A stretch of DNA of 64,000 bases, from contig SVQK01000110.1 of NCBI GenBank assembly GCA_015065385.1, positions 3,902 to 67,901 of the forward strand. The letters run 5' to 3'. Source of the DNA: Oscillospiraceae bacterium. GTDB lineage: Bacteria; Bacillota; Clostridia; Oscillospirales; CAG-272. The notes beneath the pieces are model-generated. The model was not told where the DNA came from and did not search any database. It saw only the letters and a list, made by a program, of their open reading frames with translations. This document shows, piece by piece, positions 41,338 to 56,129 of the stretch. The translations under genes were made by a program, and so were the position numbers. Positions within the stretch are counted from its first letter, which is position 1. Each line of letters opens with the position of its first letter.

Positions 41338-43389
41338 ATGATGCTGACACAGCGGCTCGGTTCCACTACGCAGATGGATCCCGCTTTCATGGAGGAATTC
41401 ATCCGGATCGTGCGGGAGCATCCGGGATCCTGCGACGAGGTCTGGCTGGCCTCGAAATACGGCTTCCCGCCCATGGAGGTCCACAGGCGGACAGCGGAAG
41501 CTCTGTCCAGAACGGCGGAACGGCTCCGGGCATGCGGCCTGCGGGTTTCCCTCCAGATTTCCAACACCATAGGCCACGGGGAATACATGAGCTCACAGGA
41601 CTGCTCCGGCCTTGTGTACGAGGGATCCCCGGTGAGGAGCATGGTCGGTCCCGACGGCGGGGTCGCCCGGTACTGCTTCTGCTGGAACGATCCGGTCCTG
41701 CGCCGGTATGTAACGGAGGAGGTTTCCGCCTACTGTGCCGCCATCCGCCCACATACGGTCTGGGTGGACGATGATCTGCGGGCTGTCAATCACGCTCCCG
41801 TGCGCTTCGGCTGCTTCTGCGACGCCTGCGTTGCGGACTTCAACCGGCTCAACGGATGGTCGTACACCCGGGAAGAGCTGGCGGAAAAGATCGGACGGGA
41901 CGCGGGCGAGATGCGGGAGGCATGGGTGCGGTTCGTGCGGGATGGTCTGTACAGCTTCACCTATGAGCTCTCCCGCGCGGTTCACGAGGCATCCCCCGAG
42001 ACCTTCATGGGACTGCAGAACGGGTGCAACGGCGGTTACTCCGGCTCAGGCCTCCGCCATCTCTTCGATGCCATGCGGGACGCCACGGGCAAGCCTCCCA
42101 AATACCGGCCCGGCGGCGGCGCATACAATGACCACGATCCGAACGCCATGCTGGACAAGATGGATTCCATTTCCTGGCAGAACGCGCTTCTTCCGGACTA
42201 TGTGACGGAGATCCGCCCCGAAATCGAAAATCTCCCGGACGTCCGGTTCGGGAAAACCGTCGCCGGTACCTGCTACGAGACGACCCTGTATCTGGCCGCC
42301 GGAGCCACCGCCATGTCCTATGCCATGCTGATGAACGACAACGAGGAGATGGACTGGCACGGGGATATGCTCTCCGCCTTCGCCGCCCATCGCCCGTACT
42401 GGTCGCTGCTTTCAAAGGCCTCCGCGGGGACCTGTCAGGGCGGTCTGATGCAGGCTCTGGGCAAGGAGATGTGGAAACGGCCGCTTAAACCGGGAGAAGG
42501 ACCCTTCGCGTGGTGCGGCGAACCCTTTTCTTTCCCCGCCGAAGCGCTGCGGGGCACGGGGATCCCCCTGTCCTTCGACTGCAAGCACGCCCCCGTGTAC
42601 ATGCTGAATCCCGCCGCCATCCGTACCATGACGGACGAGGAGCTGGACGATTTGTTCGAAAAGCCCGTTCTCACCTCCGGGGATGCGCTGATCCTCCTGT
42701 CGGAGCGCGGATTCGGCTCCATGTTCGGGGCGTCGGCGGAGCGGGCGGACACCCTTCGTCTGTACGAGCGGTTCACGGATCATCCGGTGAACGGGGACGC
42801 CGCCGGAAAGACCTGGGACCAGAGCTTCCACATCAACCGGGGCTGGACGCTGACGGACCTTGACGGGACCACGGAGATCCTCGGCCTGTTCGAGACCGCC
42901 AACCGGGCCACGCCGCCCCTGTTCCCGAAGGGGCCCCATCCCTTTGGCATCGCGTCAGCGATCGTCCGCACAGGAAAAGGCGCGCGCTGGGCCGTATTCG
43001 GGGATTCGCCGTGGAACAGCGTCATTTCCCTGAACCGGCGCAACCAGCTTCTGCGGGCCGCGGACGCCATATCCGGGAACCGTCTGACCGCCATTCTGGA
43101 AACCGGGATCCGGGCGGTTCTTCTGCCGCGGGAGGATGAGGCGGGCAGGCTGACCTCGGTGTCGGTGCTGAACTGCACGGTGGGGGAGAGCGGACCGCTG
43201 GTGCTCCGTCTGCGCAGACCCGCTTTGGATCCGGGCCGGACTTCCTGCGCGTTTGCCGCTCAGGGACAGCCCGTTCTGCGGGATCTGCCTCTGACGCGCC
43301 TGACGCCGAACGGAGAGGAGTGGTCAGCCGTGATGCCCTCCCTGAAACCGTGGTCCCTCGGCACGCTGTTCATCCGGAATCTCTCCTAA
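41338..43389 (+). CDS. Hypothetical cytoplasmic protein (683 aa), family not recognised
   Basis: Long GC-rich ORF with a GGGGAGG RBS before the ATG at 41338. Codon composition matches its neighbours. No signal peptide. Confidence 0.55.
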   Translation: MMLTQRLGSTTQMDPAFMEEFIRIVREHPGSCDEVWLASKYGFPPMEVHRRTAEALSRTAERLRACGLRVSLQISNTIGHGEYMSSQDCSGLVYEGSPVRSMVGPDGGVARYCFCWNDPVLRRYVTEEVSAYCAAIRPHTVWVDDDLRAVNHAPVRFGCFCDACVADFNRLNGWSYTREELAEKIGRDAGEMREAWVRFVRDGLYSFTYELSRAVHEASPETFMGLQNGCNGGYSGSGLRHLFDAMRDATGKPPKYRPGGGAYNDHDPNAMLDKMDSISWQNALLPDYVTEIRPEIENLPDVRFGKTVAGTCYETTLYLAAGATAMSYAMLMNDNEEMDWHGDMLSAFAAHRPYWSLLSKASAGTCQGGLMQALGKEMWKRPLKPGEGPFAWCGEPFSFPAEALRGTGIPLSFDCKHAPVYMLNPAAIRTMTDEELDDLFEKPVLTSGDALILLSERGFGSMFGASAERADTLRLYERFTDHPVNGDAAGKTWDQSFHINRGWTLTDLDGTTEILGLFETANRATPPLFPKGPHPFGIASAIVRTGKGARWAVFGDSPWNSVISLNRRNQLLRAADAISGNRLTAILETGIRAVLLPREDEAGRLTSVSVLNCTVGESGPLVLRLRRPALDPGRTSCAFAAQGQPVLRDLPLTRLTPNGEEWSAVMPSLKPWSLGTLFIRNLS

Positions 43390-43668
43390 TACTATTCTCA
43401 GCCTAAAATGCTAAACTGTATGGGTTTTGATCGCTTCATGTAGGGTGCGAACGGCCTTCTTGCTCAACTTGTTGAGCGGGTGAGCATCGCGTGCGATAAC
43501 TCTGATAAGGTTGGATGGCTATATTGGTGTACCAAAGCTTCAGCTTCACATGATTGCTATAGCCTATCCTTTGTCCCCTTCCCAATGAAGTTCTTTGTAA
43601 GCTCAACTTGTTGAGCGAGCTTTCATCCGAAAGAAAGCCGCGTTTCCCTTTTAGCTTGAGATTAGTAT
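43389..43668 (+). mobile_element. MITE-like repeat, copy A (~280 bp, non-coding, lower GC)
   Basis: ~20-bp imperfect terminal inverted repeats (ATACTATTCTCAGCCTAAAA ... TTTTAGCTTGAGATTAGTAT). Two internal GCTCAACTTGTTGAGC palindromes. A second copy sits at 53621-53899 in the opposite orientation. It starts on the last base of the upstream stop codon. Confidence 0.6.
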
Positions 43669-43796
43669 AAATCCGGGAAAGAAAACGGAAAAGGGGAATG
43701 CGACAGAGCGGCCCGTCTCGGTTTTCTTTGCCGCCGTTTCCTCACCGATACCGCATCATGATCGCACGAACACGACAGAAAGAAGAGGTAGCCCGT

Positions 43797-45710
43797 ATGC
43801 TTTCCGCACTCCACACTTTTCGGATCACGGACGGATCCGCCGTCTTCGCCCCTTTCACCCTGCCGGACAACGAAGCGCTGGCAGCAGTGCTGGCTCAGAT
43901 TCCCACCTCGCCGGAGGGATTCTTCCGAGGCGTCGAATTTGTATCCCCCATTCCCGAAATACTCCTTGCGGAAGCGCGGGCCCTCTTCGGCACCGACCGC
44001 ACGCCCGTGGAGGACAGCTATCTCGTCGATACCCGCGGCAGCATCGCGCGCGTCTGTGCCGACAATATGCGCGGCCTGATCTATGGTGCTTATGCGCTTC
44101 TTCAGGACGCGCGCGATTCCGGGGACGGCAGAAGCGTGGGACGCGGCCTGATCTGGGACCTTCCCCGCTGTCCCTTCCGCGGCCTGAAAGTCTATATGCC
44201 CGCGCCGGACGATCTCGACAGCTTCCGCCGCACCGTCGATCTGCTTCTGTCCCTGCGCTACAACACGATCATCCTCGAGGTGGGCGGCGCGATGGAATAC
44301 AAGTCCCATCCGGAGATCAATTCCGCGTGGATCGACTACTGCCGGGAGATGAACCGTTATCCGGACCGCGCCGATGAAATCCAGAACAAAACGTATCCCT
44401 GGGCCAAGAACTCCATCCATTTCGAGAACGGCGGTGGCCGCTTTCTGACGCAGGACGCCGTGCGCGGGCTTGTGAAGTACTGCCGTGACCGCGGCATGGA
44501 GGTCATCCCGGAGTGTCCCACGCTGTCCCATGCCGACTACCTGCTGATGCCGCATCCGGAGCTCGCGGAGCGGGACAACGACGCGTGGCCGGACGCCTAC
44601 TGCCCCTCAAATCCCGACACCTACAAGCTGGTCTTCGACGTACTCGGGGAGGTGATCGACGTCTTCCGGCCCGAGGTCGTGCACATCGGTCACGACGAGT
44701 ACTATTCCATCGGCGTCTGCCCGCGGTGCAAGGGGAAACCCGCCGAGAAACTCTTCGCCGACGATCTCACGAAGATCCACGACTGGCTTGCCGAGCGCGG
44801 GATCCGCACCATGTTCTGGGCGGAGAAGGTTTTGGATGCCATCGGCCTCAACGGGGAGCACTTCGGAGGGTCCGAGCAGCGCGTGCGCCACGAGGACGGT
44901 TCCGTAGAGATTGTTCGTCCTGCCACATGGCGCGCGATCGACCTGATCCCGCGGGACGTGATCGCCCATCACTGGTACTGGAGCATCGCGGAGTATTTCG
45001 ACGACGAATTCAACAAACGCGGCATCACGCTCCGGTACGGCAATTTCGCGCCGGTCAATTTCCTTGACTGGAACCGCCGTCTGACACAAGGCGCGGAAGG
45101 CGGAGCTCCCTCCCACTGGTCCAGTCTGGAGGACGCGACCTTACAGCGCAACGGCGTCTTTCTCTCCCTCTTCATGGGCAGACGGATGTTCTGGGACGAG
45201 GCATGGGACGACGCGCGCTTCCCGGAGTACATCGACGACGTTTTCGAGGAAATGTACCTGACCTGCAACCGGAAGACGCTCGAAGGGCCTCACTTCCTCA
45301 TCGAGCATGCCTCGACCATCGAACGCCCCTATCAGTATCTGTCCAGCGTCCCGATGCAGGTGGAGCGCGACACCGTCGGCCGGTACGAGGTGGAGTATGA
45401 GGACGGCGAGATCCTGACGGTCCCGCTCGTTTACGGGCTGAATATCTCGGGGAAAAGCCGCGTCTGGGAGCGTCATTATCAGGGCGGTCTCTCCGAGAAT
45501 ATCGGGCTTGCCGAGCGCGACACATGGTCGTTCGACAGCAAGCTCGCCGAGGTTTCCTGGACGACGCTTCCCTTCCGGCGCGGAAAGGACACATGGTTCC
45601 GCCTCGCGGTGCCGGATCCGCATCCCGAAAAGCGCGTGACCGCGATCCGCGTGATCAAGACCTGCGAAGACGAGGGCGATATCCTGCTCGGAGGATATGT
45701 TCATTCCTGA
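43797..45710 (+). CDS. GH20-like beta-N-acetylhexosaminidase family protein
   Basis: RGLKVYMPAP.., YNTIILEVGG, IPECPTLSHADY, VVHIGHDEY (variant of the H-x-G-G-D-E catalytic motif). Start moved to MLSALHTF (ATG 43797). Confidence 0.6.
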   Translation: MLSALHTFRITDGSAVFAPFTLPDNEALAAVLAQIPTSPEGFFRGVEFVSPIPEILLAEARALFGTDRTPVEDSYLVDTRGSIARVCADNMRGLIYGAYALLQDARDSGDGRSVGRGLIWDLPRCPFRGLKVYMPAPDDLDSFRRTVDLLLSLRYNTIILEVGGAMEYKSHPEINSAWIDYCREMNRYPDRADEIQNKTYPWAKNSIHFENGGGRFLTQDAVRGLVKYCRDRGMEVIPECPTLSHADYLLMPHPELAERDNDAWPDAYCPSNPDTYKLVFDVLGEVIDVFRPEVVHIGHDEYYSIGVCPRCKGKPAEKLFADDLTKIHDWLAERGIRTMFWAEKVLDAIGLNGEHFGGSEQRVRHEDGSVEIVRPATWRAIDLIPRDVIAHHWYWSIAEYFDDEFNKRGITLRYGNFAPVNFLDWNRRLTQGAEGGAPSHWSSLEDATLQRNGVFLSLFMGRRMFWDEAWDDARFPEYIDDVFEEMYLTCNRKTLEGPHFLIEHASTIERPYQYLSSVPMQVERDTVGRYEVEYEDGEILTVPLVYGLNISGKSRVWERHYQGGLSENIGLAERDTWSFDSKLAEVSWTTLPFRRGKDTWFRLAVPDPHPEKRVTAIRVIKTCEDEGDILLGGYVHS

Positions 45711-45886
45711 ACGGGAGAGGGAGAGGAAAACCCGTTGACGGAAGAGGCGGATTCTCCCGCCAAATTTCAACGGATAGGAGAGGAGGAGTCTTACCGTAAT
45801 CACGTCCGACAGGCTCCCGGTCATTCTTTCCCCTGCCGTTCAGCGAGTCGTCATCCGCAAATCGAAGAAAAGGCACGGATTTCGTC

Positions 45887-45915
45887 TTGCCATCCGCCGA
45901 AATCTGCGCTATAAT
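45887..45915 (+). promoter_or_regulatory. Promoter
   Basis: TTGCCA (45887-45892), a 17-nt spacer, then TATAAT (45910-45915). Confidence 0.5.
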
Positions 45916-45958
45916 AAGCACACAGATCACCGCGATTCTCAAACCGGAGGTACTCCAA

Positions 45959-47683
45959 ATGAAGATACAGTTCGCATACGCCGACCGCGATTTCAAGCAG
46001 GTCGAAGGAAAGGTCCCCTCGCTCGACAGCCGCGCGGTCAAAGGCGCGGAGAAGATCGATACGATCCGCCTGTTCTCCGTGAGAAATTCGTCCGCCGCCT
46101 TCCAGATCGCCGTCCAAGCGGACGAAGACTGCATTCTGAATGTCGGAACCGAACCCTATTTCTCCCAGCACGGTCAGAAGCCCACGCTCCGGATCGCCCT
46201 TGAGTCCGAACTTTCCGGAACCCTCAGCATCCTCGGCCTCACCCTTGCTGAGGATGGACTGCGGCACGCCGACGCCCTGCTCTCCTCACCCGTGCTGGAA
46301 ATCAAGGCCGGGGAAATCCGCACGGTCTACGCCGAGCTTCGCGTACCGGCGGACGCCGCGCCCGGAGATCACGGCTTCACCGTGCGCTTCTATACGCACC
46401 GCATGCTGGAAGCCGAGACCGAAGCGGGATCTTTCTCCGGCGCCGTCGAGGTCTCGAACTACATCCTGCACGACGTGAGGGAGAATAAATTCCACCTCGA
46501 TCTCTGGCAGCATCCCTCGAATCTGGCCCGCAAGGCGGAAACACCCCTTTGGAGCGACGCGCATTTTGCCGTGATCGACCGGTATCTGGCGTCCCTCGGA
46601 GAGCTTGGGCAGAAGGCGGTCACCATCGTCGCCTCCGACGCCCCGTGGAGCGGTCAGGGCTGCGGCGTTTCCAACGAGGACGCGAATATGTTCGAGTACG
46701 GCATCATTCAGACGAAGAAGACCCGGGACGGCTCCATAGAGTGCGATTACCGCGCCATGCAGCGGTACATCGACACGGCGGCAAAGTACGGCATCGACCG
46801 GGAGATCTCGGTTTACGGCCTCTGCAACGTGTGGAGCCAGTGCGGCTTTACCCATCCGGCGGAGGACTACCCGGACGGGGTGCGCATCCGCTATCTTGAT
46901 GAAACGGACGGATGCTACAAGTATATGACCGAGGCCGCCGATATCAAGGCTTACATCGTGAGCCTTGAACAGTACTTCCTCGCCACCGGGCAGATGGACC
47001 GCGTGCGTCTGTCAGCCGATGAACCCGGCGATATCGAACACTATCGCGCGATCCTCCGCCTGCTCCGCGAAATCGCCCCCGCCTTCAAATTCAAGGCCTG
47101 CATCAACCACTCCGAATTCATCGGCGAGTTCGGCGAGGAGGTGTACGACTTTGCGCCGTACATCGGGGGCATGACCGCCGAGTATCCGGTGCTCAGGCGG
47201 TATCAGGAGACGATGCCGGGGAAGCGGTTTCTCTACTACATCTGCTGCGGCCCCGCCTTCCCGAACACCTTCATCACCAGTCCCCTCATCGAGTCGGAAT
47301 ACATGCCCGTGCTGGCCTCCGCGGCGGGATTTGACGGTATGCTCCGGTGGAGCTACAATATCTGGCCCGACCGTCCGAGAGAGGACGCGCGCTACCGTGA
47401 CTGGCGGACCGGCGACACCCACCTCGTCTATCCGCAGGCCGACGGCAGTCCGCTCCTGACGCTGAGATGGAAAGAATTCAAGCGCGGCATCGAGCTGTAC
47501 GAAATTCTCGAAGAGCTGAAAGCGAAGGATCCGGACGCCGCTGCGGAAGCATACGCGATGGTAATGAAGACCGCCGATATCGAAGCCGTCGGAAGAGCAA
47601 AAACGCCGGAGGAGATGTATGTCTCGGATATCGAGGCGTACGACGGAATGGAGAAATTCGCCGCCGGGCGTCTGGCTGAATGA
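45959..47683 (+). CDS. DUF4091 domain protein (GH123-like putative glycosidase)
   Basis: FHLDLWQHP, ..SADEPGD.. and GDTHLVYP...LRWKEFKRGIELYEILEELK resemble the DUF4091/GH123 layout as I recall it. GGAGG RBS before the ATG at 45959. Confidence 0.55.
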   Translation: MKIQFAYADRDFKQVEGKVPSLDSRAVKGAEKIDTIRLFSVRNSSAAFQIAVQADEDCILNVGTEPYFSQHGQKPTLRIALESELSGTLSILGLTLAEDGLRHADALLSSPVLEIKAGEIRTVYAELRVPADAAPGDHGFTVRFYTHRMLEAETEAGSFSGAVEVSNYILHDVRENKFHLDLWQHPSNLARKAETPLWSDAHFAVIDRYLASLGELGQKAVTIVASDAPWSGQGCGVSNEDANMFEYGIIQTKKTRDGSIECDYRAMQRYIDTAAKYGIDREISVYGLCNVWSQCGFTHPAEDYPDGVRIRYLDETDGCYKYMTEAADIKAYIVSLEQYFLATGQMDRVRLSADEPGDIEHYRAILRLLREIAPAFKFKACINHSEFIGEFGEEVYDFAPYIGGMTAEYPVLRRYQETMPGKRFLYYICCGPAFPNTFITSPLIESEYMPVLASAAGFDGMLRWSYNIWPDRPREDARYRDWRTGDTHLVYPQADGSPLLTLRWKEFKRGIELYEILEELKAKDPDAAAEAYAMVMKTADIEAVGRAKTPEEMYVSDIEAYDGMEKFAAGRLAE

Positions 47684-47733
47684 CCCCGCTCTGTCCGGCG
47701 TCGTCGTGAAAGAATCGGCTTACCGTTTTCTGC

Positions 47734-47762
47734 TTGACGTCCGGCTCAGGATGTGATACAAT
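47734..47762 (+). promoter_or_regulatory. Promoter with extended -10
   Basis: TTGACG (47734-47739), a 17-nt spacer, then TGaTACAAT (ends at 47762). Confidence 0.55.
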
Positions 47763-47783
47763 CATATGGGAAATCCAAAACCC

Positions 47784-47819
47784 CGAACGCATCGGAAACG
47801 CTGACACCGTTCGTTTTTT
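47784..47819 (+). terminator. Terminator-like hairpin + T6 inside the 5' leader of the oxidoreductase gene (possible attenuator)
   Basis: CGAACG-18 nt-CGTTCG followed by TTTTTT. It lies between the promoter (47734-47762) and the start codon at 47879. Confidence 0.35.
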
Positions 47820-47878
47820 CAAGGGTACAGAGAAGACGGACAGCCAAAACTTCATCACCATAAACGGAGGGCAAAAAC

Positions 47879-48982
47879 ATGAGCAAACTGCGCACGGTCA
47901 AGGTCGGCATCGTCGGCTGCGGCGGCATCGCCAACGGAAAGCATATGCCGGCGTTACGGAAATGTGAAAATGTGGAAATGATCGCCTTCTGCGATATCAT
48001 TGAGGAGAGAGCGGTCAGAGCGGCGGCCGATTACGGCGTCGAGGGAGCAAAGGTCTTCACCGATTACCGGGATCTCTTGGCCATGAAGGATATCGAGGTC
48101 GTCCATGTGCTGACGCCGAACTACAAGCACGCGGAGATCTCCATCGCCGCGCTGAACGCAGGCAAGCACGTCATGTGCGAAAAGCCCATGGCGACGACTT
48201 ACACAGAAGCCGTGGCCATGTGCGAGGCGGCGGAGAAGAACGGGAAAAAGCTCACGATCGGCTATCAGTCCCGTTCGGAGCCTTCGTATCAGTACGCCCA
48301 CAACCTGATCGCGCAGGGAAAGATCGGAGAGGTCTACTATATCAAAGCTCCGTCCATCCGTCGCCGCGGCGTGCCCACATGGGGCGTCTTCATGGACGAG
48401 GAAAAGCAGGGCGGCGGTCCGATGATCGATATCGGCACCCATTCCATCGACGCGGCGCTGTATGTGGCCAACAACTACGATGTGGCGTCCGTGACCGGGG
48501 TCGTGAACAACAAGCTGAAATACTACGCGAAGGACAACGGATCCTGGGGACCGTGGGGCGAGAACCGGCCCTTTACGGTGGAGGACAGCGCCATGGGCAT
48601 GGTCCGGTTCAAAAACGGCGCCATGATGTATGTGGAAGCCTCGTGGCTCCTGAACGTGCAGGACGGAGGACACCCGACCTTCTGCGGCACCCTCGGCGGC
48701 ATCGAGCTGATGCATGGCGGAGTAGCGATAAACGGCGAAAGACCGGACGAAAACGGACAGATGAAGCTGTTTGACGAGCTTTACAAGCCGACGTCCGCCG
48801 ACCGGACTTACTTCCGCGACGAGCAGCTTTCCTCCTCCGAATACGAAGCGCGCCAGTGGATCCAGGCAGTCGTGGAGGATATCGATCCGATCGTTCTGCC
48901 CGGACAGGCCGCCGTGGTCACGAAAATCATCGAGGCGATCTATCAGAGCGGGCGCAGCGGAAGGACCGTCTATTTTGACTGA
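47879..48982 (+). CDS. Gfo/Idh/MocA family oxidoreductase
   Basis: VKVGIVGCGGIANGKH Rossmann motif, ..EKP.. motif (MCEKPMA). 367 aa. Confidence 0.85.
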   Translation: MSKLRTVKVGIVGCGGIANGKHMPALRKCENVEMIAFCDIIEERAVRAAADYGVEGAKVFTDYRDLLAMKDIEVVHVLTPNYKHAEISIAALNAGKHVMCEKPMATTYTEAVAMCEAAEKNGKKLTIGYQSRSEPSYQYAHNLIAQGKIGEVYYIKAPSIRRRGVPTWGVFMDEEKQGGGPMIDIGTHSIDAALYVANNYDVASVTGVVNNKLKYYAKDNGSWGPWGENRPFTVEDSAMGMVRFKNGAMMYVEASWLLNVQDGGHPTFCGTLGGIELMHGGVAINGERPDENGQMKLFDELYKPTSADRTYFRDEQLSSSEYEARQWIQAVVEDIDPIVLPGQAAVVTKIIEAIYQSGRSGRTVYFD

Positions 48983-49020
48983 TTTCTCCGACCGGAAGAA
49001 CAATGAAGGGCGGTGAAACG

Positions 49021-49845
49021 ATGCTTACCTATTCTGTCTGGTCAAGTTATTTTGTCGAGCTGTCTCCCGAAGACATGGTAAAGGAGTTTGTGAACGCCGG
49101 CTTCACCGCGACGGAGCTCTCGGATGAGCACGGACTCATGCTCCTCTCCCGCGGGAACCCCGAAAAAGGGGGAGCCAAACTGAAAGAATACGCAGGGGAT
49201 CTCGGTTTTTCCTTCCCGCAGGGGCATTTGCTCCTCCGCGCGGATCTCTGTACGGACGGCGCGGCGGAGATTCTCAAACCGTGGCTCGATTTGTTCGTCT
49301 CGCTCGGGATCAGATCCGGAGTGCTTCATGCGGCCGGAGGGGACGCCCTGACTCCGGAAGCGCGGTTCGAGCGGCGCGTCGGAACGCTCACGGAGCTCGC
49401 GGAGTATGTCAAAGGGAGCGATTTCACGATCTGTCTCGAAAACCTGCGCGGCGAGACGAGGCCGGAAACAGCGGAGGACCTGAACGCGCTGATCGACGCA
49501 TCCGGCGGGGACGCGAATCTCGGGATCTGTCTCGATACCGGACACCTGCACATCAAAAGAGAGCGTCAAGAGACACAGGCGGACTTCATCCGGATCGCGG
49601 GAAAGAGGCTGAAAGCGCTCCACATCGCCGACAACGACACTACGAGCGATATGCACCTGATGCCCTACGGCCGCGGCACGATCGACTGGTCCGAAGTCAT
49701 GACCGCCCTCCGCGGCGTCGGATACGACCGCCTCTTCAACCTCGAGATCCCCGGCGAGCGGCGCTGTCCCCTGCCGATCCTGAGGGCAAAGCTCCTGTAC
49801 TGCCGCGCGCTGTGCGAAACCATGCTCTCGTCCGTCGGCCTTTGA
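49021..49845 (+). CDS. Sugar phosphate isomerase/epimerase (xylose isomerase-like TIM barrel)
   Basis: ICLENL and LGICLDTGHLHI metal-site-type motifs. The start is either ATG 49003 or ATG 49021. Confidence 0.75.
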   Translation: MLTYSVWSSYFVELSPEDMVKEFVNAGFTATELSDEHGLMLLSRGNPEKGGAKLKEYAGDLGFSFPQGHLLLRADLCTDGAAEILKPWLDLFVSLGIRSGVLHAAGGDALTPEARFERRVGTLTELAEYVKGSDFTICLENLRGETRPETAEDLNALIDASGGDANLGICLDTGHLHIKRERQETQADFIRIAGKRLKALHIADNDTTSDMHLMPYGRGTIDWSEVMTALRGVGYDRLFNLEIPGERRCPLPILRAKLLYCRALCETMLSSVGL

Positions 49846-50003
49846 CCGCTTCCCCGCACAGGTGATCCGTCCGTACAATCCATAAAGAAACAACGATCCC
49901 CGGCCTTCGAGAAGGAACCGTCTTCCCAAGGCTGAGGATCGTTTTTCGTTTGTCCCCCGGCACCGGTTGGGACAGCATTACTCCATGAACGTTTTCTTCC
50001 GCT

Positions 50004-51278
50004 TCAGAAAGGGAGCTCCATCATCGGCCAGCGCGCTTCGGCGACGTTCAGAACATCGTAGTCGATGCCGTTCTCCCGGAGCTGTCGGATAAACGTCATG
50101 AAGATGTCCTCTCCCTTGAAATACTGCATGAAGTTGAGGAAGAAGTACCCGTGCAGGGCGCTCATCTCCACGGTCAGCGGGACATGCGTGGACGGGAGCG
50201 CGGTGGACGGCAGAACTTCAAATTCCTGTATGAACGGTTCCACGTCTCCGAAATTCGCCTTGCCGACATAGCTGACCGTGGCCGTCAGAGACCGGGAAAT
50301 CGTCTCCATCCGCTCGACACAGCATTTTCTCCGCTCGCCGTGCGTTTTCATCCCTGCAAGGCGGAACATCAGATCCTGATAGTCTCCAATTTCATTCTGC
50401 ACCATATCCTCGTCGGACTGCAGCGTCACCATTCCCCGGAAACAGGTCGCCTGCGCACTGAACGGGAGGTCTCTCATCCTGCGCTGATACGGCAGCCGCA
50501 CGTCCCCCACCAGACTCTGATGCGCAAGAGGGGCGTGAAGTGCCTTTCTCTGATTGACGCAAATAGCGATCACGGGCGGACGGTCCGCGTCCGGGTACAG
50601 CGCGTCTATCGTCCGGGCCAGAAGCAGCGCGACGATGGTAGCCGGGCTTCCGTCGTTCGAGATGTTGAACCGCATGAATTCCTCTTCGGGTATGCGGAGG
50701 TTGTACACGGCGCAGTCGTCGGTCAGCGGAACGACGTCGGCCATCTGAAAGGCGGGTTTATTCCACTTGGGAACGGCGATCCTCCTTCTCTCGGGAAGGG
50801 GGCGTTCTGCCGGATCCTCCCATTCCGCCGGAGCGACGCTGTCCCCGGAAAGCCGGATCCCTTCCGCAGAGAACTCCTTTCCGTACAGATCGGACAGGTA
50901 ATAGAAGAACAGCGTCCGAATCAGCGGATAAATGCCTCCCCCGTCCGTGAGCCCGTGGAAGACATCGATATAGAGCCTGTTCCACGAATAACAGAAGGCC
51001 AGAAGATGCCCCTCCGTCTGTCCGCTCCCGAGTGTGATCCTCTCATGCGTATTCAGAACGGGCACGGGCGCCGGGTTCTCCCCGAAGCGGATCTCGTCCC
51101 CGTCAGCGATCATCCGCACCCGGAAATACGGATACCGCTCCATGGTCTTATCGACCGCCGCGCGGAGAATTCCGCCGTCCACAAGATCCTTCAGCTTGAT
51201 GGTGATGCGGAACGTGTGAGGATCCGCCTCCGTTGTCTCATATATGGTTCTCAGCTCTGAGTATAGGGTCCGGCTCAT
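50004..51278 (-). CDS. Stand-alone condensation/CAT-superfamily-like acyltransferase (HxxxDG motif), function unknown
   Basis: DVFHGLTDGGG matches the HxxxDG catalytic motif of NRPS C-domain/PapA5/WS-DGAT-type enzymes. The 424-aa size fits a single C-like domain. Confidence 0.5.
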   Translation of the reverse strand: MSRTLYSELRTIYETTEADPHTFRITIKLKDLVDGGILRAAVDKTMERYPYFRVRMIADGDEIRFGENPAPVPVLNTHERITLGSGQTEGHLLAFCYSWNRLYIDVFHGLTDGGGIYPLIRTLFFYYLSDLYGKEFSAEGIRLSGDSVAPAEWEDPAERPLPERRRIAVPKWNKPAFQMADVVPLTDDCAVYNLRIPEEEFMRFNISNDGSPATIVALLLARTIDALYPDADRPPVIAICVNQRKALHAPLAHQSLVGDVRLPYQRRMRDLPFSAQATCFRGMVTLQSDEDMVQNEIGDYQDLMFRLAGMKTHGERRKCCVERMETISRSLTATVSYVGKANFGDVEPFIQEFEVLPSTALPSTHVPLTVEMSALHGYFFLNFMQYFKGEDIFMTFIRQLRENGIDYDVLNVAEARWPMMELPF

Positions 51279-51316
51279 GGCGCAGCGCTCCGTTTCGTAT
51301 TGTGATCGACGGCACT

Positions 51317-51346
51317 ATCTTACCACAGCGATCCCGTTTCTGTCAA
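51317..51346 (-). promoter_or_regulatory. Promoter for the HxxxDG acyltransferase-like gene
   Basis: On the minus strand: TTGACA, an 18-nt spacer, then TGgTAAGAT. Confidence 0.45.
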
Positions 51347-51461
51347 GAACCGCGGCCGATCCTGTTCCATGGTCGAGTCTGCATATGACCATGTCCCCGT
51401 CGTCCCGTCGGAAATGCGGCTGTTCTCCTATAAAAGTTCCCCGCTTTCGTCTGGATAAACC

Positions 51462-52400
51462 TCAGCCGTTCCCCTTCCCCGCTTTTTTCAAGGCGTCGTA
51501 TGTTTCCGACATCCATTCGCCGTAGGAATCGTAAGGGGTCTCTGTCCACCGGTCGAGCAGTTTGTTCAGGGTCATTCTGTCCTCTTCGATACCGGCGCTT
51601 TCATACTGCTCCGGATCGCGGTTGACCGTCACAATGTGGCGCTGATCTTTGCGGAAATCGATCCGGTAGACGCAGTACCCCGTCCAGCTGCGGTGCGCCC
51701 AGAGGACGGAGCCTTCCATATACCAGAACCACTTATCTCCCATATCTTCGGGAATATGGCCCCGGCGAAGCGCATCCATTTCGTCGTCGCTGAAAGAACG
51801 GGCAAGCACAAAGTACTCCGTTTTCCCGGGCATGGGCTTCGTCTTCCAGTCGCCGCGTCCGGCCGCCGCAAGCGCTCCCGCCCCTGCCCTGCGAACTGCC
51901 TCTTTTCCCGCTTTGAGCACATGATCGTCCAGAACGGCAAAGACGATATGCACCGCGGCTTCCCTGTGCTCCGCGATGTACTCCGCACAGGCCGCGACGG
52001 CGTCCGCCCACGCCTTGTTCACGGGATAGCCGTAGATCCCAGACGATATCAGCGGAAATCCTATGCTTCCGCAGCGGTTGATCCGCGCCAAATCCAGGGC
52101 GTTTTTATAGGCGCTTTTCAGCTTTTCCGGCTCGCCGTGATTTCCGTCGATCCAAATCGGACCGACGGCGTGAATCACATACCGCGCCTTCAGATCGAAG
52201 CCGGGCGTGATGACCGCCCCGCCGGTATCGCAGTGTCCGATTGCGTCGCAGGCTGCCCGCATCTTCTGATATCCCGCCGCCCGAAAGATCGCTCCGCACA
52301 CGCCGCCTCCCGCCGCAAGGGCTTCATTGGCCGCATTGACGACAGCATCCGTATCCAGATCGACGATGCTTGTTTTTCTGATCTCGATCATGCTTTTCAT
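51462..52400 (-). CDS. Macro domain (MacroD/YmdB-type ADP-ribose-binding/deacylase-like) fused to a ~140-aa C-terminal domain of unknown function
   Basis: DAVVNAANEALAAGGGVCGAIFRAAG, HAVGP and IGFPLISSGIYGYP macro motifs. I do not recognise the C-terminal ..GDKWFWYMEGSVLWAHRSWTGYCVYRIDF.. domain. Start at ATG 52400 (GGAGG RBS). Confidence 0.8.
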   Translation of the reverse strand: MKSMIEIRKTSIVDLDTDAVVNAANEALAAGGGVCGAIFRAAGYQKMRAACDAIGHCDTGGAVITPGFDLKARYVIHAVGPIWIDGNHGEPEKLKSAYKNALDLARINRCGSIGFPLISSGIYGYPVNKAWADAVAACAEYIAEHREAAVHIVFAVLDDHVLKAGKEAVRRAGAGALAAAGRGDWKTKPMPGKTEYFVLARSFSDDEMDALRRGHIPEDMGDKWFWYMEGSVLWAHRSWTGYCVYRIDFRKDQRHIVTVNRDPEQYESAGIEEDRMTLNKLLDRWTETPYDSYGEWMSETYDALKKAGKGNG

Positions 52401-52507
52401 AAACAGCCTCCGGTGCGCATTCTCCTTCCGCAAGTAAGATTCCGCACACACATCGCAAACTTCTGCCGCTTCGTTCCAACCGGCGACTTGCCGTCATTGG
52501 CAAGCTG

Positions 52508-52924
52508 TCATTCATACGCCAGCAGATTCCCAAGCGGAACTGTGAACCCAAGCGCCTTGTACATGTCCACGTCACAGTCCGCGCAGCCGACCGTCAGAGA
52601 GGAAACACCGCTTTCCCCGTACGCAAACCGCACCAGCCGACGCGCTATCCCCCGATGCCGATACTCAGGACGTATATAGAAATCCTCCAATACGCCGCTC
52701 GGTTTGTAATCAAAAGTCGAGAAGCCGACTGTCACCGAGCAGCAGCCGATCAGCGTCTTTTCGCTCCAAACGCCGTAGAAGAAAATGCTCTCCCTGCCGA
52801 CGGCATCCGCCAGACGCTCTTTTGCGCCGTACTCCGGTCCGTCCTCTCCGATTTCCGCCTTGTAGCGCTTTTGAAGCTCCCACAAAGCGTCGATTTCAGA
52901 AGGATCGATTTTTCTGTACTCCAT
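52508..52924 (-). CDS. GNAT family N-acetyltransferase (138 aa)
   Basis: Motif A, YRHRGIARRLV. Confidence 0.8.
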   Translation of the reverse strand: MEYRKIDPSEIDALWELQKRYKAEIGEDGPEYGAKERLADAVGRESIFFYGVWSEKTLIGCCSVTVGFSTFDYKPSGVLEDFYIRPEYRHRGIARRLVRFAYGESGVSSLTVGCADCDVDMYKALGFTVPLGNLLAYE

Positions 52925-53038
52925 AAATCTCCTTTCCGGATCGTTTTATTCTGTATGTTTCAAATTTCGGCATATGCGGACATTCTTCCTCTTTCCTTCC
53001 GAAAAAACAACTTTGTTCATACTCTCTTAACAACCATA

Positions 53039-53047
53039 TGGTATAAT
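53039..53047 (+). promoter_or_regulatory. Extended -10 promoter element (TGgTATAAT) for the small peptide gene
   Basis: Read directly. It lies 65 nt upstream of the ATG at 53112. The -35 is poor. Confidence 0.5.
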
Positions 53048-53111
53048 AGAATTGAATCAATCCCATGGGAACACCAGTCGGAAACCCAAACCTTTCAAAG
53101 GAGGAAACTGT

Positions 53112-53393
53112 ATGGACAGCAAAAAGCTCGAGGAGCTCACCCGTGAGATGTTCGGAGACAAGGCAAAGAAGCTCTCGCTCAGCGATCTGGAGGGCGTTTC
53201 GGGCGGCGTGATCGAGGAAGATCAGGTCGAAGGTCTCAAATCCTGGCTCTCTTTTGCCAAGTCAAGCGGCGCTACCAAGGAGCAGTGCGTCACCTTTGCG
53301 CCGCTCTATCTTCCGCAGATCAATAAGATGTACCCGAACGTCACGCTGGTGGATATCCGGGACTTCATCAACACATACTATGAGTCTGTCTGA
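53112..53393 (+). CDS. 93-aa peptide precursor with a double-glycine (GG) leader
   Basis: MDSKKLEELTREMFGDKAKKLSLSDLEGVSGG | VIEEDQ... The segment LSLSDLEGVSGG fits the LSxxELxxIxGG consensus at positions -12, -11, -8, -7, -4, -2 and -1. AAAGGAGG RBS 7 nt upstream, its own promoter and a strong terminator. Confidence 0.7.
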   Translation: MDSKKLEELTREMFGDKAKKLSLSDLEGVSGGVIEEDQVEGLKSWLSFAKSSGATKEQCVTFAPLYLPQINKMYPNVTLVDIRDFINTYYESV

Positions 53394-53494
53394 TCAGGCA
53401 GATCCCCGCCGCTGAAGTCCGTTTCCAGGGAACGTGCACAGTCAGATCCCGCGTGAGAACAGGACAGCAGCTGCTGCGGTACGGAAAGCCGGCC

Positions 53495-53556
53495 AAAAAA
53501 ACGAAATCGTAAAGGAATGCTGACAGAATCACATCCTTGAACGGTTTCGTTTTTTG
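53495..53556. terminator. Long-stem bidirectional Rho-independent terminator
   Basis: A7, then ACGAAATCGT..AAGGA..loop..TCCTT..ACGGTTTCGT, then T6. Confidence 0.75.
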
Positions 53557-53620
53557 CGTTTCAGAAGGGGTTGGCATCCTTCCGAAGGCAGTCCCGGCTC
53601 CGCGTCATCTGCGGGTTCTG

Positions 53621-53899
53621 ATACTAATCTCAAGCTAAAAGGGAAACGCGGCTTTCTTTCGGATGAAAGCTCGCTCAACAAGTTGAGCTGGCAAAGAACT
53701 TAATGGGGAGGAGGTAATGGATAGGCTATACCAATCAAGTGAAGCTGAGGCTTCGGCACACCAATATAGCTATCCAACCTTATCAGAATTATCGCACGCG
53801 ATGCTCACCCGCTCAACAAGTTGAGCAAGAAGGCCGTTCGCCTCCTACATGGAGCGATCAAAACCCATATAGTTTAGCTTTTTGGGCTGAGAATAGTAT
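53621..53899 (-). mobile_element. MITE-like repeat, copy B (inverted relative to copy A)
   Basis: Its reverse complement aligns end to end with 43389-43668, with roughly 9 of 10 positions identical by eye. One terminal 69 nt is identical. It ends 25 nt from the stop codon of the GH89 gene. Confidence 0.6.
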
Positions 53900-53924
53900 G
53901 ACCCGTCCGATGTCCTTATCCCGC

Positions 53925-56129
53925 TCAATCAAGGTTCAAACTCTTCATCACGTTCTCTTCAAAGCTCGCGCAATCGCCGGACTCGGCATGACCGGCATAG
54001 GAATCCCCACACACCAGCTCGAGAGCGGACAGAACGGCGGATTTCAGATCGCCGGATGGATCATCCTGTGAATACGCCTTTTTCCGGTAAACGAAGGGCA
54101 GCTCCTCATCGTAGGCGTCGATCGGCCCGCAGTCCTTCCCTGTGAGAAGGGAAAGTTCAAGCCTCGTGAGGAAGCTCTCCCAGCGCGGACGGTAAAAGTC
54201 TTCGAGCAGGCCCTGCCACGAACGCGCCGCGTAGTCCCTCAGAAGGGCCGCCCCGCTCCGATCTCCCCAGAGCGTGACGAGCGTCCGGGCGTTCCATTCG
54301 AAATACGCCTTTTCCGCCGCCGTTCTGCCGTGCCTCCTCGCCTTCCCGATCCATGTTCCGAGCCTCATATCCGGGAAGGAGGAAACAAGCTCGCTTTCCG
54401 TGTCGAAAAGCGCAAACAGTTTCCCGCCCCAGCGCGAAAGGGCTTCCACCTCCTTTGCCGCGTACGCCTCTTTGATCTTTGAGACGATATGCCACGAATA
54501 ATTGGCAATCAGCGAATTGGCCGCGTCCATCAGATCCCGCCGGTACGCCGGATTGTCCTTCAAGGAGTCGTATTCCTCGAACAGGGCTTCGATAAACCCG
54601 GTCAGCAGGCTTTGATCGGCGTCCGGATCGGGCTCCGGCGACCAGGAGGATGTGTGCCGGACGTCGAGGGACGGACGTGCGCAGAGCGCCGATTCACCGC
54701 AATAGACGGACTTGGCGTTCATGATCTCGCGGCAGGCCGTCGTCCAGGCGGATACGAGACGTTCCGTGCATTTCCCGTATCTCGTTTTCAGATAGTACCG
54801 GATGAACGAATCAAGATCGCAGCTGTCCGAAAAAGCGGCGTACGAAAACGCTTCATATACGATCCCGCAGCAGTTGACGGCCTCGGGCATGAACCCGATC
54901 CCGACGAGGTTCGTGTTTTCATCCTCGAGACAGCGACGCGGATTCGTGAGGACCGTTTCCGGCTTGCCGAAGAAATAATACTGACCGCCGAAGAAATAGA
55001 CATCGCAGTAACACCACGGCGCGCCGGCGTAGAGCTCCTGTCCCTGCCAGTTGTCGCCGGACAGGTTCATGATCAGGATGCGGTCCTCGGGGATGCTCCG
55101 GATGACGTCGGCCTTCGGCGTGTTCGTCCACCCCTGCAGCATCCAGACCGCTTCGGGATCGCATTCCGCCATGTTCCGATAGACGCCCGTTCCGTAGGCG
55201 AAAAGGTCTATGCCGTCCGTGACTCCGCCCTCGTGAAAGGGATCGGCCGAATATATATGCGTATCCTCCGCTCCCGGGATCTTTTTGCTCTCCCGGTAGA
55301 AGAGACCGGCAGCGCGGTCGAAAAGGGGATCCCACGGCATGAGCAGAGCCGGGCGTACAAATCCGCACCACGGCCCCTGATCGATGGGATTCGATTCCGG
55401 GAAATGCGCGGCGAAATCCGCCGGAACCATCCCGGCGAAGCCCGGAGCAGCCGTGGAAATGCCGAGCGCGTGGAGCCGCCGGTTGATTCTGCCCGCGAGC
55501 TCACGCCGTTCCTCGTACCAATGCAGCGGCGCGCCTCCCGCCCATCCGGTCAGATTCATCATCCACTGCCATGCGTAGAACGCCGGGCCGCAGATAAAGT
55601 CCTCCGCTTCCTTTTCGGAATATCCGAGTTCAAGCAGAACGGACCGCCAGACACATTCGAGCCCGATCGGATTGAGAATCAGGTTGTACCCGGACAGAGC
55701 CAGAATATCGAGGGTCTTCTCCCAGTCTTCCCAACTGTCGAAGGCGTAGGTATAACAAAACGTGCAGTAGTTGAAAAAGTACCGCCAGACGTACGGACTT
55801 CTGCGCCGGATCGGCTCTCCGACGGCGGGGGGATTTGCAGGGAGCGTTCCTGTCACGTCCAGCGCGCCGACGGAGTATCCGCACCGTTCTTTCAGATACG
55901 CGCTGAACCCGGTTGTGATCCCGGATCCCGACGAGCCTCGGATGAGGATCCTTCCGTCCCGGTCAGAAACTCCATAGGAGTCGAATCCGTCGTCCTCGAA
56001 GAGCTCGAGGTCGATGGACTCCCGGTATGCCTCTCCCGCGACACGCCCGATCAGGGCACGCAGTTCCCCGAGCTCGGCAGCCGGAGCGATCCGCCGTTTG
56101 GTATTGAGATACATCTCTTTGATCTTCAT
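53925..56129 (-). CDS. Alpha-N-acetylglucosaminidase (GH89, NAGLU-like)
   Basis: VWRYFFNYCTFCYTYAFDSWEDWEKTLDILALSGYNLILNP, YAWQWMMNL and ..SADPFHEGG.. match the GH89 layout. Start at ATG 56129 (AAAGAGG RBS). No signal peptide. Confidence 0.8.
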   Translation of the reverse strand: MKIKEMYLNTKRRIAPAAELGELRALIGRVAGEAYRESIDLELFEDDGFDSYGVSDRDGRILIRGSSGSGITTGFSAYLKERCGYSVGALDVTGTLPANPPAVGEPIRRRSPYVWRYFFNYCTFCYTYAFDSWEDWEKTLDILALSGYNLILNPIGLECVWRSVLLELGYSEKEAEDFICGPAFYAWQWMMNLTGWAGGAPLHWYEERRELAGRINRRLHALGISTAAPGFAGMVPADFAAHFPESNPIDQGPWCGFVRPALLMPWDPLFDRAAGLFYRESKKIPGAEDTHIYSADPFHEGGVTDGIDLFAYGTGVYRNMAECDPEAVWMLQGWTNTPKADVIRSIPEDRILIMNLSGDNWQGQELYAGAPWCYCDVYFFGGQYYFFGKPETVLTNPRRCLEDENTNLVGIGFMPEAVNCCGIVYEAFSYAAFSDSCDLDSFIRYYLKTRYGKCTERLVSAWTTACREIMNAKSVYCGESALCARPSLDVRHTSSWSPEPDPDADQSLLTGFIEALFEEYDSLKDNPAYRRDLMDAANSLIANYSWHIVSKIKEAYAAKEVEALSRWGGKLFALFDTESELVSSFPDMRLGTWIGKARRHGRTAAEKAYFEWNARTLVTLWGDRSGAALLRDYAARSWQGLLEDFYRPRWESFLTRLELSLLTGKDCGPIDAYDEELPFVYRKKAYSQDDPSGDLKSAVLSALELVCGDSYAGHAESGDCASFEENVMKSLNLD

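Follow-up and report, generated by a model that had tools for sequence, protein, structure and literature searches.

The two inverted repeats that bracket a nine-gene block in the window (the whole 64-kb stretch of DNA analysed here) are very probably two solo, separate MITE insertions, related to the IS630 family, which neither carried nor flipped the 10-kb block between them. Three mechanisms had been offered in the initial annotation; that of two independent insertions agrees with the target-site duplication (TSD) that each copy has of its own, while neither a composite or foldback element nor an invertible segment found support. The description of the repeat as a MITE-like element was upheld by these duplications, by further copies and by a related full-length IS. 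The element is small and without coding capacity, it has terminal inverted repeats (TIRs) and TSDs, its copies lie at multiple unrelated loci, and an IS with matching termini exists.

The two copies in the window

By repeat search and blastn/MAFFT alignment, the sequences at 43389-43668 (+) and 53621-53899 (-) are a reverse-complement pair identical at 258 of 280 positions (92%; 8% diverged), in line with the nine in ten first estimated by eye. The identical tracts comprise an internal block of 53 nt and the last ~70 nt, the latter being the identical end initially put at 69 nt. The outermost A and T of those coordinates are part of 3-bp target-site duplications, and the transposed cores are accordingly slightly shorter (Table 1). 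Both copies contain two internal palindromes, GCTCAACTTGTTGAGC, at positions that are now fixed, and both are lower in GC (0.47-0.50) than their surroundings (~0.6); the same end of the element, ATACTATTCTCAG, faces outward in each, all as had been claimed. Indels separate members of the family. There is no conserved ORF in the element, only short ones with TTG, GTG or ATG starts that copies A and B do not share, and a reading as a small protein or type I toxin was dropped on that account. No third copy was detected in the 64-kb window by blastn or by nhmmer with a family profile. The segment between the copies, as the initial annotation stated, is without a transposase by Pfam and tblastn, and so is the rest of the window.

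Table 1. Positions in the window of the two MITE copies, their termini and duplications, and the neighbouring genes
Feature	Position	Strand	Remarks
MITE copy A	43390..43667	+	278-bp core, non-coding; sequence, repeat search, blastn, nhmmer
MITE copy B	53622..53898	-	277-bp core, inverted relative to A; sequence, repeat search, blastn, nhmmer, three assemblies
Left TIR, copy A	43390..43409	+	TACTATTCTCAGCCTAAAAT; 16/20 vs right TIR, 15-17/20 vs IS630-family IS ends
Right TIR, copy A	43648..43667	-	TACTAATCTCAAGCTAAAAG (- strand); 17-18/20 vs full-length IS ends in L074/L076
Left TSD, copy A (TAA)	43387..43389	+	also the stop codon of gene 41338..43389
Right TSD, copy A (TAA)	43668..43670	+	
Right TSD, copy B (TCA on - strand)	53619..53621	-	
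Left TSD, copy B (TCA on - strand)	53899..53901	-	23 nt downstream of the GH89 stop codon (53925-53927)
Copy A palindrome 1 (GCTCAACTTGTTGAGC)	43462..43477	.	optional module, missing in L052, L057, L048, L070
Copy A palindrome 2	43601..43616	.	optional module, missing in L038, L070
Copy B palindromes (GCTCAACTTGTTGAGC)	53811-53826 and 53673-53688		
Gene upstream of copy A	41338..43389	+	683 aa, no Pfam family; exact-protein look-up; stop codon is the putative insertion target
Gene upstream of copy B	53925..56129	-	GH89 alpha-N-acetylglucosaminidase
Intervening segment	43671..53618	.	two convergent operons; Pfam and gene calls

Termini and target-site duplications

The TIRs are about 20 bp long and imperfect, with the consensus TACTAWTCTCA..CTAAAA; the two ends of the copies, TACTATTCTCAGCCTAAAA and TACTAATCTCAAGCTAAAA, are identical at 16 of 20 positions, and conservation across the family ends precisely at the TIR tips; TIRs of about this length had been read from the two copies. 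Immediately outside them, each copy in the window has a perfect direct repeat of 3 bp to itself, TAA/TAA around copy A and TCA/TCA around copy B. Four metagenome copies, all in unrelated gene contexts, have matching T-N-A duplications as well (TTA/TTA in L034, L038 and L070, TCA/TCA in L057), so that a matched T-N-A is present in all six copies with both termini intact; it is absent from L052, where a terminus is mutated, and from L048, where the ends are degenerate. The middle base is the same in direct orientation in all six (chance about 4^-6) and is never the complement, which would be expected of an extended inverted repeat. In the MITE duplications this base is A, C or T, G being found only in the unpaired flanks of the full-length IS contigs L076 and L078. 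The classical TA duplication model was rejected, since it leaves the direct T-N-A repeat unexplained on both sides of six MITE and two IS copies; a 3-bp T-N-A rather than the TA dinucleotide of the IS630 family is what is found in the MITE and in the IS of L063 and L074.

These duplications bear directly on the suggestion that the two inverted copies belong together as the termini of a single 10.5-kb mobile unit, by which nine genes were brought in between two convergent ones. Such a unit would account for the same end facing outward in both inverted copies and for an interior lacking a transposase, as in a non-autonomous composite, and the neighbours of the flanking genes do differ in relatives, though general synteny loss fits that equally well. 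However, a 10.5-kb unit that had moved needs identical outer TSDs, and the outer + strand flanks are TAA (43387-89) and TGA (53899-901), with no shared duplication; a composite or foldback element carrying cargo is thus not supported. Each copy instead has a matched TSD of its own, all other family members found are solo and unpaired, and the GC of the segment equals that outside it. Neither one TSD round the whole unit nor transposase-encoding terminal IS copies, the marks of a composite transposon, were found, and a single unit of this kind is exceedingly improbable.

A related full-length IS630-family element

In L059/L060 an exact match to the TIR pattern lies at the very tip of a DDE_3 transposase gene, and full-length elements of ~1109 bp, which supply the parent-type IS with matching TIRs that the initial annotation had proposed looking for, were found in L074 (TSD TCA/TCA) and L063 (TSD TTA/TTA). 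Their transposase is split into orfA and orfB, matching NCBIfam transpos_IS630 above cut-off: orfB scores 143 bits against NF033545 (cut-off 100), while orfA spans model positions 1-133, and Pfam DDE_3 and HTH_33 match as well. The IS ends are identical to the MITE ends at 15-18 of 20 positions, which makes them as alike as the MITE's own two ends; the similarity is confined to ~20 bp per end, and the MITE interior is unrelated to the IS. All of these full-length elements were found in other metagenome or viral contigs rather than in the genome of the window. In L075-L077, three of the five contigs with a full-length IS, the two T-N-A flanks differ; these contigs are 1.2-1.4 kb long, come from a multi-copy repeat and, on our assumption, may be chimeric. 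An origin in IS5, PIF or Harbinger elements, prompted by the T-N-A duplication, was dropped, the matching termini being those of IS630-family (DDE_3) elements. A search of the literature for TNA in connection with IS630 gave no results.

Copies at other loci

A metagenome scan followed by blastn and nhmmer recovered copies 68-90% identical, ranging with those of the window from 235 to 278 bp. The family occupies at least 10 distinct loci in metagenome and viral contigs, with differing neighbours that include a PFL-like enzyme, methionine gamma-lyase, an AMP-binding enzyme, FeoB, a GtaA-like protein and a radical-SAM operon. One more copy, in L070, lies 9 kb from a GH89 orthologue. Eight other copies found are solo insertions, none pairing around cargo (L053 runs off the end of its contig), and the orientation of the dispersed copies relative to neighbouring genes is mixed. 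In three of 10 copies (copy A of the window, L057 and L039) the insertion coincides with the stop codon of a gene that is supported; a fourth, L038, is on the stop of a 491-aa ORF without Pfam support. The degenerate copy in L053 now provides the Shine-Dalgarno sequence and ATG of ymdB.

No match to the element was found by blastn in plasmid and phage sequences. A scan of the genome collection, to which the source genome does not belong, for two palindromes 110-140 nt apart gave only unrelated Chloroflexota tandem arrays, and a viral scan with the 17-mer palindrome gave 19 matches that aligned over 17-25 nt, with no meaningful extension past the 17-nt seed. The MITE family is found in uncultured gut or rumen Clostridia (Oscillospirales-like).

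Flanking genes and the intervening segment

The initial annotation had noted that the element abuts the 3' ends of the flanking genes, and it does: the TSD of copy A coincides with a stop codon and that of copy B lies just past one (Table 1). Element abutment to gene ends follows from the fact that T-N-A targets include the stop codons TAA and TGA. Insertion into terminator regions, the alternative that had been named, did not emerge from the scan, which detected no terminator-like site. Read on its own strand, each copy is preceded by the stop of a co-directional gene and followed by the start of a co-directional operon, so that the supposed cargo is simply two convergent operons. The + strand operon encodes GH20, GH123, a GFO/IDH/MocA oxidoreductase and a xylose-isomerase-like TIM-barrel protein, and the - strand operon a GNAT, a macro-domain protein and a 424-aa protein.

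Relatives have the flanking genes with neither the element nor the supposed cargo alongside; in L068, L070 and L072 the element is absent beside the orthologous genes, but the adjoining genes differ too. The closest relatives, in which the flanking genes are 91% and 84-87% identical in amino acids, have wholly different neighbours, and the element's absence there is therefore no clean before-and-after comparison. Homology stops at the gene borders, and the closest homologues of both flanking genes yielded no orthologous empty site; in particular, the arrangement first proposed, 41338..43389 directly convergent on the GH89 gene, was not found in relatives, which also speaks against delivery of the segment as one unit.

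Recombination between the inverted copies could in principle flip the 10-kb block as a phase-variation switch, the 278-bp repeats (92% identical, with the two identical tracts noted above) being a possible substrate for homologous recombination. This is very unlikely here. Both TSD pairs are intact; since an odd number of inversions would mismatch them, the block has, after insertion of the copies, been inverted either not at all or an even number of times. L031, L081 and L082, assembled independently and from different samples, span copy B in the window orientation at 100% identity, and none of the three has the alternative junction; there is no recombinase domain among the nine genes by Pfam, and no promoter would be reconnected in any obvious way. 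The two features by which invertons and shufflons are known, both orientations and a nearby recombinase, were thus lacking in the three spanning assemblies and the nine genes, and the invertible segment of the initial annotation is not borne out.

A structured RNA or regulatory module

The family might alternatively be, or carry, an RNA or DNA element with a function of its own, for instance as leader, terminator or sRNA, and have spread by selection for that function. Both copies in the window are sense-oriented between a gene end and the next operon, and the single-sequence fold has z-scores of -2.9 (+ strand) and -4.9 (- strand). One hairpin position is occupied by three self-complementary stems, ACGGC/GCCGT, ATCGC/GCGAT and ACAATC/GATTGT, and a 3' hairpin, with a T-rich run after it, has GCTTTC/GAAAGC replaced by GGCTTC/GAAGCC; in the consensus structure 94% of cells pair, a value reached by 0 of 500 shuffles. 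Against this, Rfam gave nothing at gathering thresholds over the whole window and nothing at E<=10 on the element, and RNAalifold energies are weak and alike on both strands (-21.0 and -17.8 kcal/mol), with unfavourable covariation terms. Double changes occur at only 4 pairs, a count matched by 63 of 500 shuffles. The covariation is weak and not strand-specific, short of what marks a known structured RNA. Orientation relative to neighbouring genes is mixed at other loci, the scan detected neither a terminator-like nor a shared promoter-like site, and any concentration of conservation in a core reaches no further than p~0.05, with one hypervariable central stretch as the main source of heterogeneity. 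Dispersal, moreover, is already accounted for by the TSDs and the IS-like TIRs. The structured-RNA role that the initial annotation had left open gains little from these results, and as an explanation of the family it is unlikely. The sole promoter-like site found, TTGAGC-17-GATAAT, is in copy B and depends on a C-to-T change specific to that copy.

Somewhat less improbable, though still doubtful, is a joint reading in which the family and its parent-type IS represent an IS630 lineage that integrates at T-N-A with a 3-bp duplication, and the conserved interior has additionally been exapted as an RNA or regulatory module for downstream operons. The exapted-module part of that reading points to the optional palindrome modules, the compensated hairpins and the T-rich 3' hairpin of the conserved interior, and to the degenerate L053 copy at ymdB. 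On the lineage part, TAA and TGA stop codons would, owing to the T-N-A target, be hit and regenerated far above expectation, with the stop-codon copies noted above as the cases in point.

Proposed mechanism and significance

Two separate MITE insertions would have arisen as follows. Having no gene of its own, the element was probably moved in trans by an IS630-family transposase, encoded outside the window, that would recognise the ~20-bp TIRs. The target, a T-N-A trinucleotide, would be cut with a 3-bp stagger on integration, and repair of the cut would leave the 3-bp direct duplication. Copy A appears to have entered the TAA stop codon of 41338..43389, the duplication restoring the stop, and would abut the 3' end of that gene for this reason; copy B would have entered a TCA that lies 23 nt beyond the stop of the GH89 gene. 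The empty sites would read CTCTCCTAAATCCGGG for A and, on the - strand, GGACGGGTCAGAACCC for B. The two events were presumably independent, their opposite orientation 10 kb apart being happenstance, and the genes between the copies would be resident chromosomal operons rather than cargo.

The feature is ordinary mobile DNA. What is new is limited to the MITE family itself, not described before (TACTAWTCTCA..CTAAAA termini, T-N-A target, 235-278 bp, optional palindromes), and to the duplication of T-N-A rather than TA in an IS630-type group. The family is linked to an IS630-type IS that is very abundant in gut metagenomes. Knowledge of it is useful in annotation, can help to explain why contigs break in MAGs of these Clostridia, and provides a marker of variation between strains; on the side of mechanism, the duplication of T-N-A by an IS630-type element and the exact reuse of stop codons as targets are modest curiosities. 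As the 10.5-kb block of glycan-utilisation and acyltransferase/macro/GNAT genes is resident DNA, its gene content should be interpreted without regard to the repeats.

Comparison with known systems

The closest likeness is to bacterial MITEs derived from IS630/Tc1-mariner elements. Like them, the present family is small and non-coding, with GC below that of the host, has ~20-bp imperfect TIRs matching those of full-length IS630-family IS (transpos_IS630, DDE_3) and short A/T-rich target duplications, and is intergenic at gene ends and capable of folding back. It differs in that its interior is unrelated to the IS, which is known from other contigs, and in its 3-bp T-N-A, which the related IS share, whereas IS630-family elements classically duplicate TA (ISY100, PMC2170065). 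Within the IS630-Tc1-mariner group, Fot/pogo elements have TAA TSDs (PMC7386202). Their DDE transposase is of the same supergroup, and their duplication, too, is A/T-rich and 3 bp long, with T as its first base and A as its last; these elements are, however, eukaryotic, much larger and specific for TAA, while in this bacterial family the middle base varies.

Composite transposons and pdif-type modules likewise have inverted repeats bracketing a transposase-free gene block, but here there is no common TSD, the repeats are MITEs with TSDs of their own, and the unit was not found elsewhere. Correia, ERIC and RUP repeats are dispersed, intergenic sequences of 100-300 bp with TIRs, often beside or overlapping stop codons; they can form long hairpins in transcripts and occur as variants with or without internal modules. 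Correia duplicates TA, and repeats of the Correia/ERIC/RUP type have documented regulatory effects (promoters, RNase III sites). The present family shares with these the dispersed intergenic location, the TIRs, the proximity to stop codons and the optional internal modules; it differs in having no sequence similarity to them, in its T-N-A duplication and in that regulatory effects were not detected.

Two inverted copies of a new element

The two inverted repeats in this window are very probably independent solo insertions of a new MITE family that is related to an IS630-type IS and has a T-N-A target. As the initial annotation reported, the copies are about nine-tenths identical (258/280 positions in a global alignment, with complete identity over the last ~70 nt and one internal 53-nt block), are lower in GC than their surroundings (0.47-0.50 versus ~0.6), and each have imperfect TIRs of ~20 bp and two GCTCAACTTGTTGAGC palindromes. 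Neither blastn with short words nor nhmmer with a family profile found a third copy within the 64-kb window. Two other repeats in the window are a ~49-nt unit present five times with a period of 69 nt (63-80% identity), probably a repeated protein module, and a 52-nt repeat present twice, 360 nt apart (77% identity), likely reflecting duplicated domains within a gene. In copy B, a private C-to-T change turns GATAAC into GATAAT, which is preceded by TG and, 17 nt upstream, by TTGAGC; this is the sole sigma-70-like match in the two copies, and is directed towards the downstream small-ORF/GNAT/macro operon.

Of the 25 metagenome contigs retrieved with GCTCAACTTGTTGAGCGRG, seven carry homologous elements. 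Two more copies were chance finds, one lying 9 kb from a GH89 orthologue (L070) and one at the extreme end of a contig that IMG/VR lists as viral (L087), where the contig breaks within the repeat. In alignments, family conservation ends precisely at TACTA... and ...TAGTA. The neighbours differ at every locus (PFL-like glycyl-radical enzyme, methionine gamma-lyase, AMP-binding enzyme, FeoB, DUF1508 plus GtaA-like protein, radical-SAM operon), and the element lies sense to the neighbouring genes at some loci, antisense or convergent at others. A scan for the two palindromes at matching spacing, in a genome collection that does not include the source genome, gave only unrelated Chloroflexota tandem arrays; those on two Chloroflexota/Anaerolineae MAG contigs (L027, L028) consist of palindromes in pairs, CCTCAACTTGTTGAGG then CCCGAACAAGTTCGGG, and have just the CTCAACTTGTTGAG core in common with the MITE.

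Coordinates and flanks of the features (window positions unless a contig is named)
Feature	Position	Identity or state	Left/right flank
Copy A (winA)	43389-43668 (+)		TAA / TAA
Copy B (winB)	53621-53899 (-)		TCA / TCA
Repeat arm pair 1 (repeat search of window)	43389-43584 / 53704-53899	inverted	
Repeat arm pair 2 (repeat search of window)	43575-43668 / 53621-53714	inverted	
L034 copy		90%, full length	TTA / TTA
L038 copy		85% over aligned part	TTA / TTA
L039 copy		cut off by contig end	
L048 copy		77%	
L052 copy		79%	
L053 copy	L053:850-1008 (-)	degenerate	
L057 copy		77-79%	TCA / TCA
L070 copy		68%	TTA / TTA
L087 copy	L087:6838-6951		TCA / 
Sigma-70-like match	53788-53816 (-)		
Low-GC stretch	53052-53393 (+) / 53368-53577 (-)		
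93-aa ORF	L031:5117-5398		
~49-nt repeat	9300-9681		
52-nt repeat	36400-36811		
ORF entering MITE	L034:1361-2026 (+)		
GtaA-like gene	L052:863-1351 (-)		
Tandem arrays	L027:1940-2130; L028:4380-4570		
IS, ~1.13 kb	L063:~2305-3434		TTA / TTA
IS, 1109 bp	L074:164-1272		TCA / TCA

Target-site duplications and stop codons

With the core defined as TACTAWTCTCA...TGAGATTAGTA, a perfect 3-bp direct repeat, T-N-A, flanks all six copies with both termini intact; no duplication is seen at L052, with a mutated terminus, or L048, with degenerate termini. The middle base is the same in direct orientation in 6/6 copies (chance about 4^-6). Were T-N-A an extension of the inverted repeat, the middle base would have to be complementary, and it is so in none of the six. 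Such matched repeats are a transposition signature, so each window copy is its own insertion event, in agreement with one of the origins first proposed, two independent insertions.

The copies abut gene ends because TAA and TGA stop codons are themselves T-N-A sites. For copy A, the target was the TAA stop codon of the 683-aa gene at 41338..43389, with the stop restored by the duplication. The same arrangement is found at the TGA stop of the PFL-like gene (L057) and the TAA stop of the methionine gamma-lyase gene (L039), and probably at the TAA stop of an unassigned 491-aa ORF (L038). The convergent GtaA-like gene of L052 now terminates at a TAA within the TIR, and the last ORF of an operon in L034 extends 115 nt into the MITE; both C-termini may have been remodelled by the insertions. 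The suggested insertion into terminator regions is not needed, and a scan showed no terminator-like sites. In a compact 60%-GC genome, the survivors would be those insertions that spare both neighbours. The degenerate copy in L053 lies immediately upstream of a ymdB-like gene and has, in place of the right TIR GTTTGAGATTAGTA, CAGGAGGTCTACATG, which is the Shine-Dalgarno and start codon of that gene; an old copy may have been exapted here.

The genes between and beside the copies

The nine intervening genes include GH20, GH123, a GFO/IDH/MocA oxidoreductase, a xylose-isomerase-like TIM-barrel protein, a 424-aa protein without family, a macro-domain protein and a GNAT; as first noted, none is a transposase (domain search, tblastn). 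Each copy, read on its own strand, comes after the stop of a co-directional upstream gene and before the start of the co-directional operon that follows, so that the supposed cargo is two convergent operons with one copy ahead of each. A 700-nt low-GC stretch separates copy B from the GNAT gene; gene callers predict a 93-aa ORF there on the + strand, and the initial annotation read a putative GG-leader peptide on the - strand. The 683-aa protein belongs to no Pfam family and has hundreds of homologues in Clostridia MAGs (e.g. L068, L069), one of them named a DUF1929 domain-containing protein in one source. Names on the flanking-protein homologues (Ruminococcaceae, Oscillospiraceae and Acutalibacteraceae MAGs) point to uncultured Clostridia as the host.

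That the copies form the ends of one composite or foldback unit carrying the gene block, as had been proposed, is extremely unlikely: the outer + strand flanks, TAA (43387-43389) and TGA (53899-53901), have no duplication in common, the remaining family copies are all solo and unpaired, and the GC of the segment equals that outside. The repeats occur with different content and the genes without the repeats. A 683-aa gene relative with 91% amino-acid identity (L068) has entirely different neighbours, as do GH89 relatives with 84-87% identity (L070, L072), in each case with no element alongside; nucleotide homology to the window stops at the gene borders, so these are not clean empty sites. The other proposal, an invertible segment flipped by recombination between the copies, is very unlikely, with a rare inversion possible. 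A single inversion would give hybrid copies with unequal flanks, but both duplication pairs are intact, and L031, L081 and L082, assembled independently from different samples, all three cross copy B as in the window at 100% identity; six further contigs end inside the repeat. The observation of the repeats is correct, and the object, two independent insertions, is of an ordinary kind.

A possible RNA role

An added RNA role for the element, left open in the initial annotation, or a regulatory one is possible but improbable. Taken singly, the copies are better folded than their shuffles whichever strand is used, as expected of any foldback repeat, and variation is modular: in place of palindrome 1, members can carry short hairpins, whose self-complementary stems come in three different sequences; palindrome 2 is missing from L038 and L070; and the stem of the 3' hairpin, GCTTTC/GAAAGC, is exchanged for GGCTTC/GAAGCC within the family. 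Against this, the RNAalifold energies are weak and much the same for either strand (-21.0 versus -17.8 kcal/mol), and the covariation terms are unfavourable; double changes occur in 4/56 pairs only, a number reached by 63/500 shuffles; no special core stands out in conservation beyond p~0.05, and where heterogeneity is significant it lies in one hypervariable central stretch; and Rfam has no match.

Relationship to the IS630 family

The shared TIR pattern ATACTAWTCTCANNCTAAAA has four hits in viral contigs, two of which (L059, L060) lie exactly at the tip of a Pfam DDE_3 gene fragment, with different flanks. Full-length relatives include an IS in L063, with ends TACTAA..., and one in L074, the latter from P0250, a cluster of transposase relatives very abundant in gut metagenomes (1351 member sequences). 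Its orfA (HTH_33) and orfB (DDE_3) jointly span the NCBIfam IS630 transposase model (orfB 143 bits, cut-off 100), and their overlap suggests a frameshift. The IS termini, TACTACTCTCAATCTAAAAG and TACTAATCTCATTCTAAAAAG, are identical to the MITE ends at 15-18 of 20 positions, as compared with 16/20 between the MITE's own two ends; no similarity was found past ~20 bp at the ends. The ~1.1-kb IS, seen also in L073-L080, has ends TACTAYTCTCA... and flanks T-N-A, not TA. In three other IS contigs (L075-L077) both flanks are T-N-A but the middle bases are unequal; as these are metagenome contigs of 1.2-1.4 kb from a multi-copy repeat, we assume that their flanks are likely chimeric. A TA duplication model was rejected, as it leaves a direct T-N-A repeat outside the TA unexplained. 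The MITE and its related IS therefore differ from the classical IS630 family, in which the duplication is TA (ISY100, PMC2170065), and resemble the Fot elements of the IS630-Tc1-mariner group in having a 3-base duplication, which in Fot is TAA (PMC7386202).
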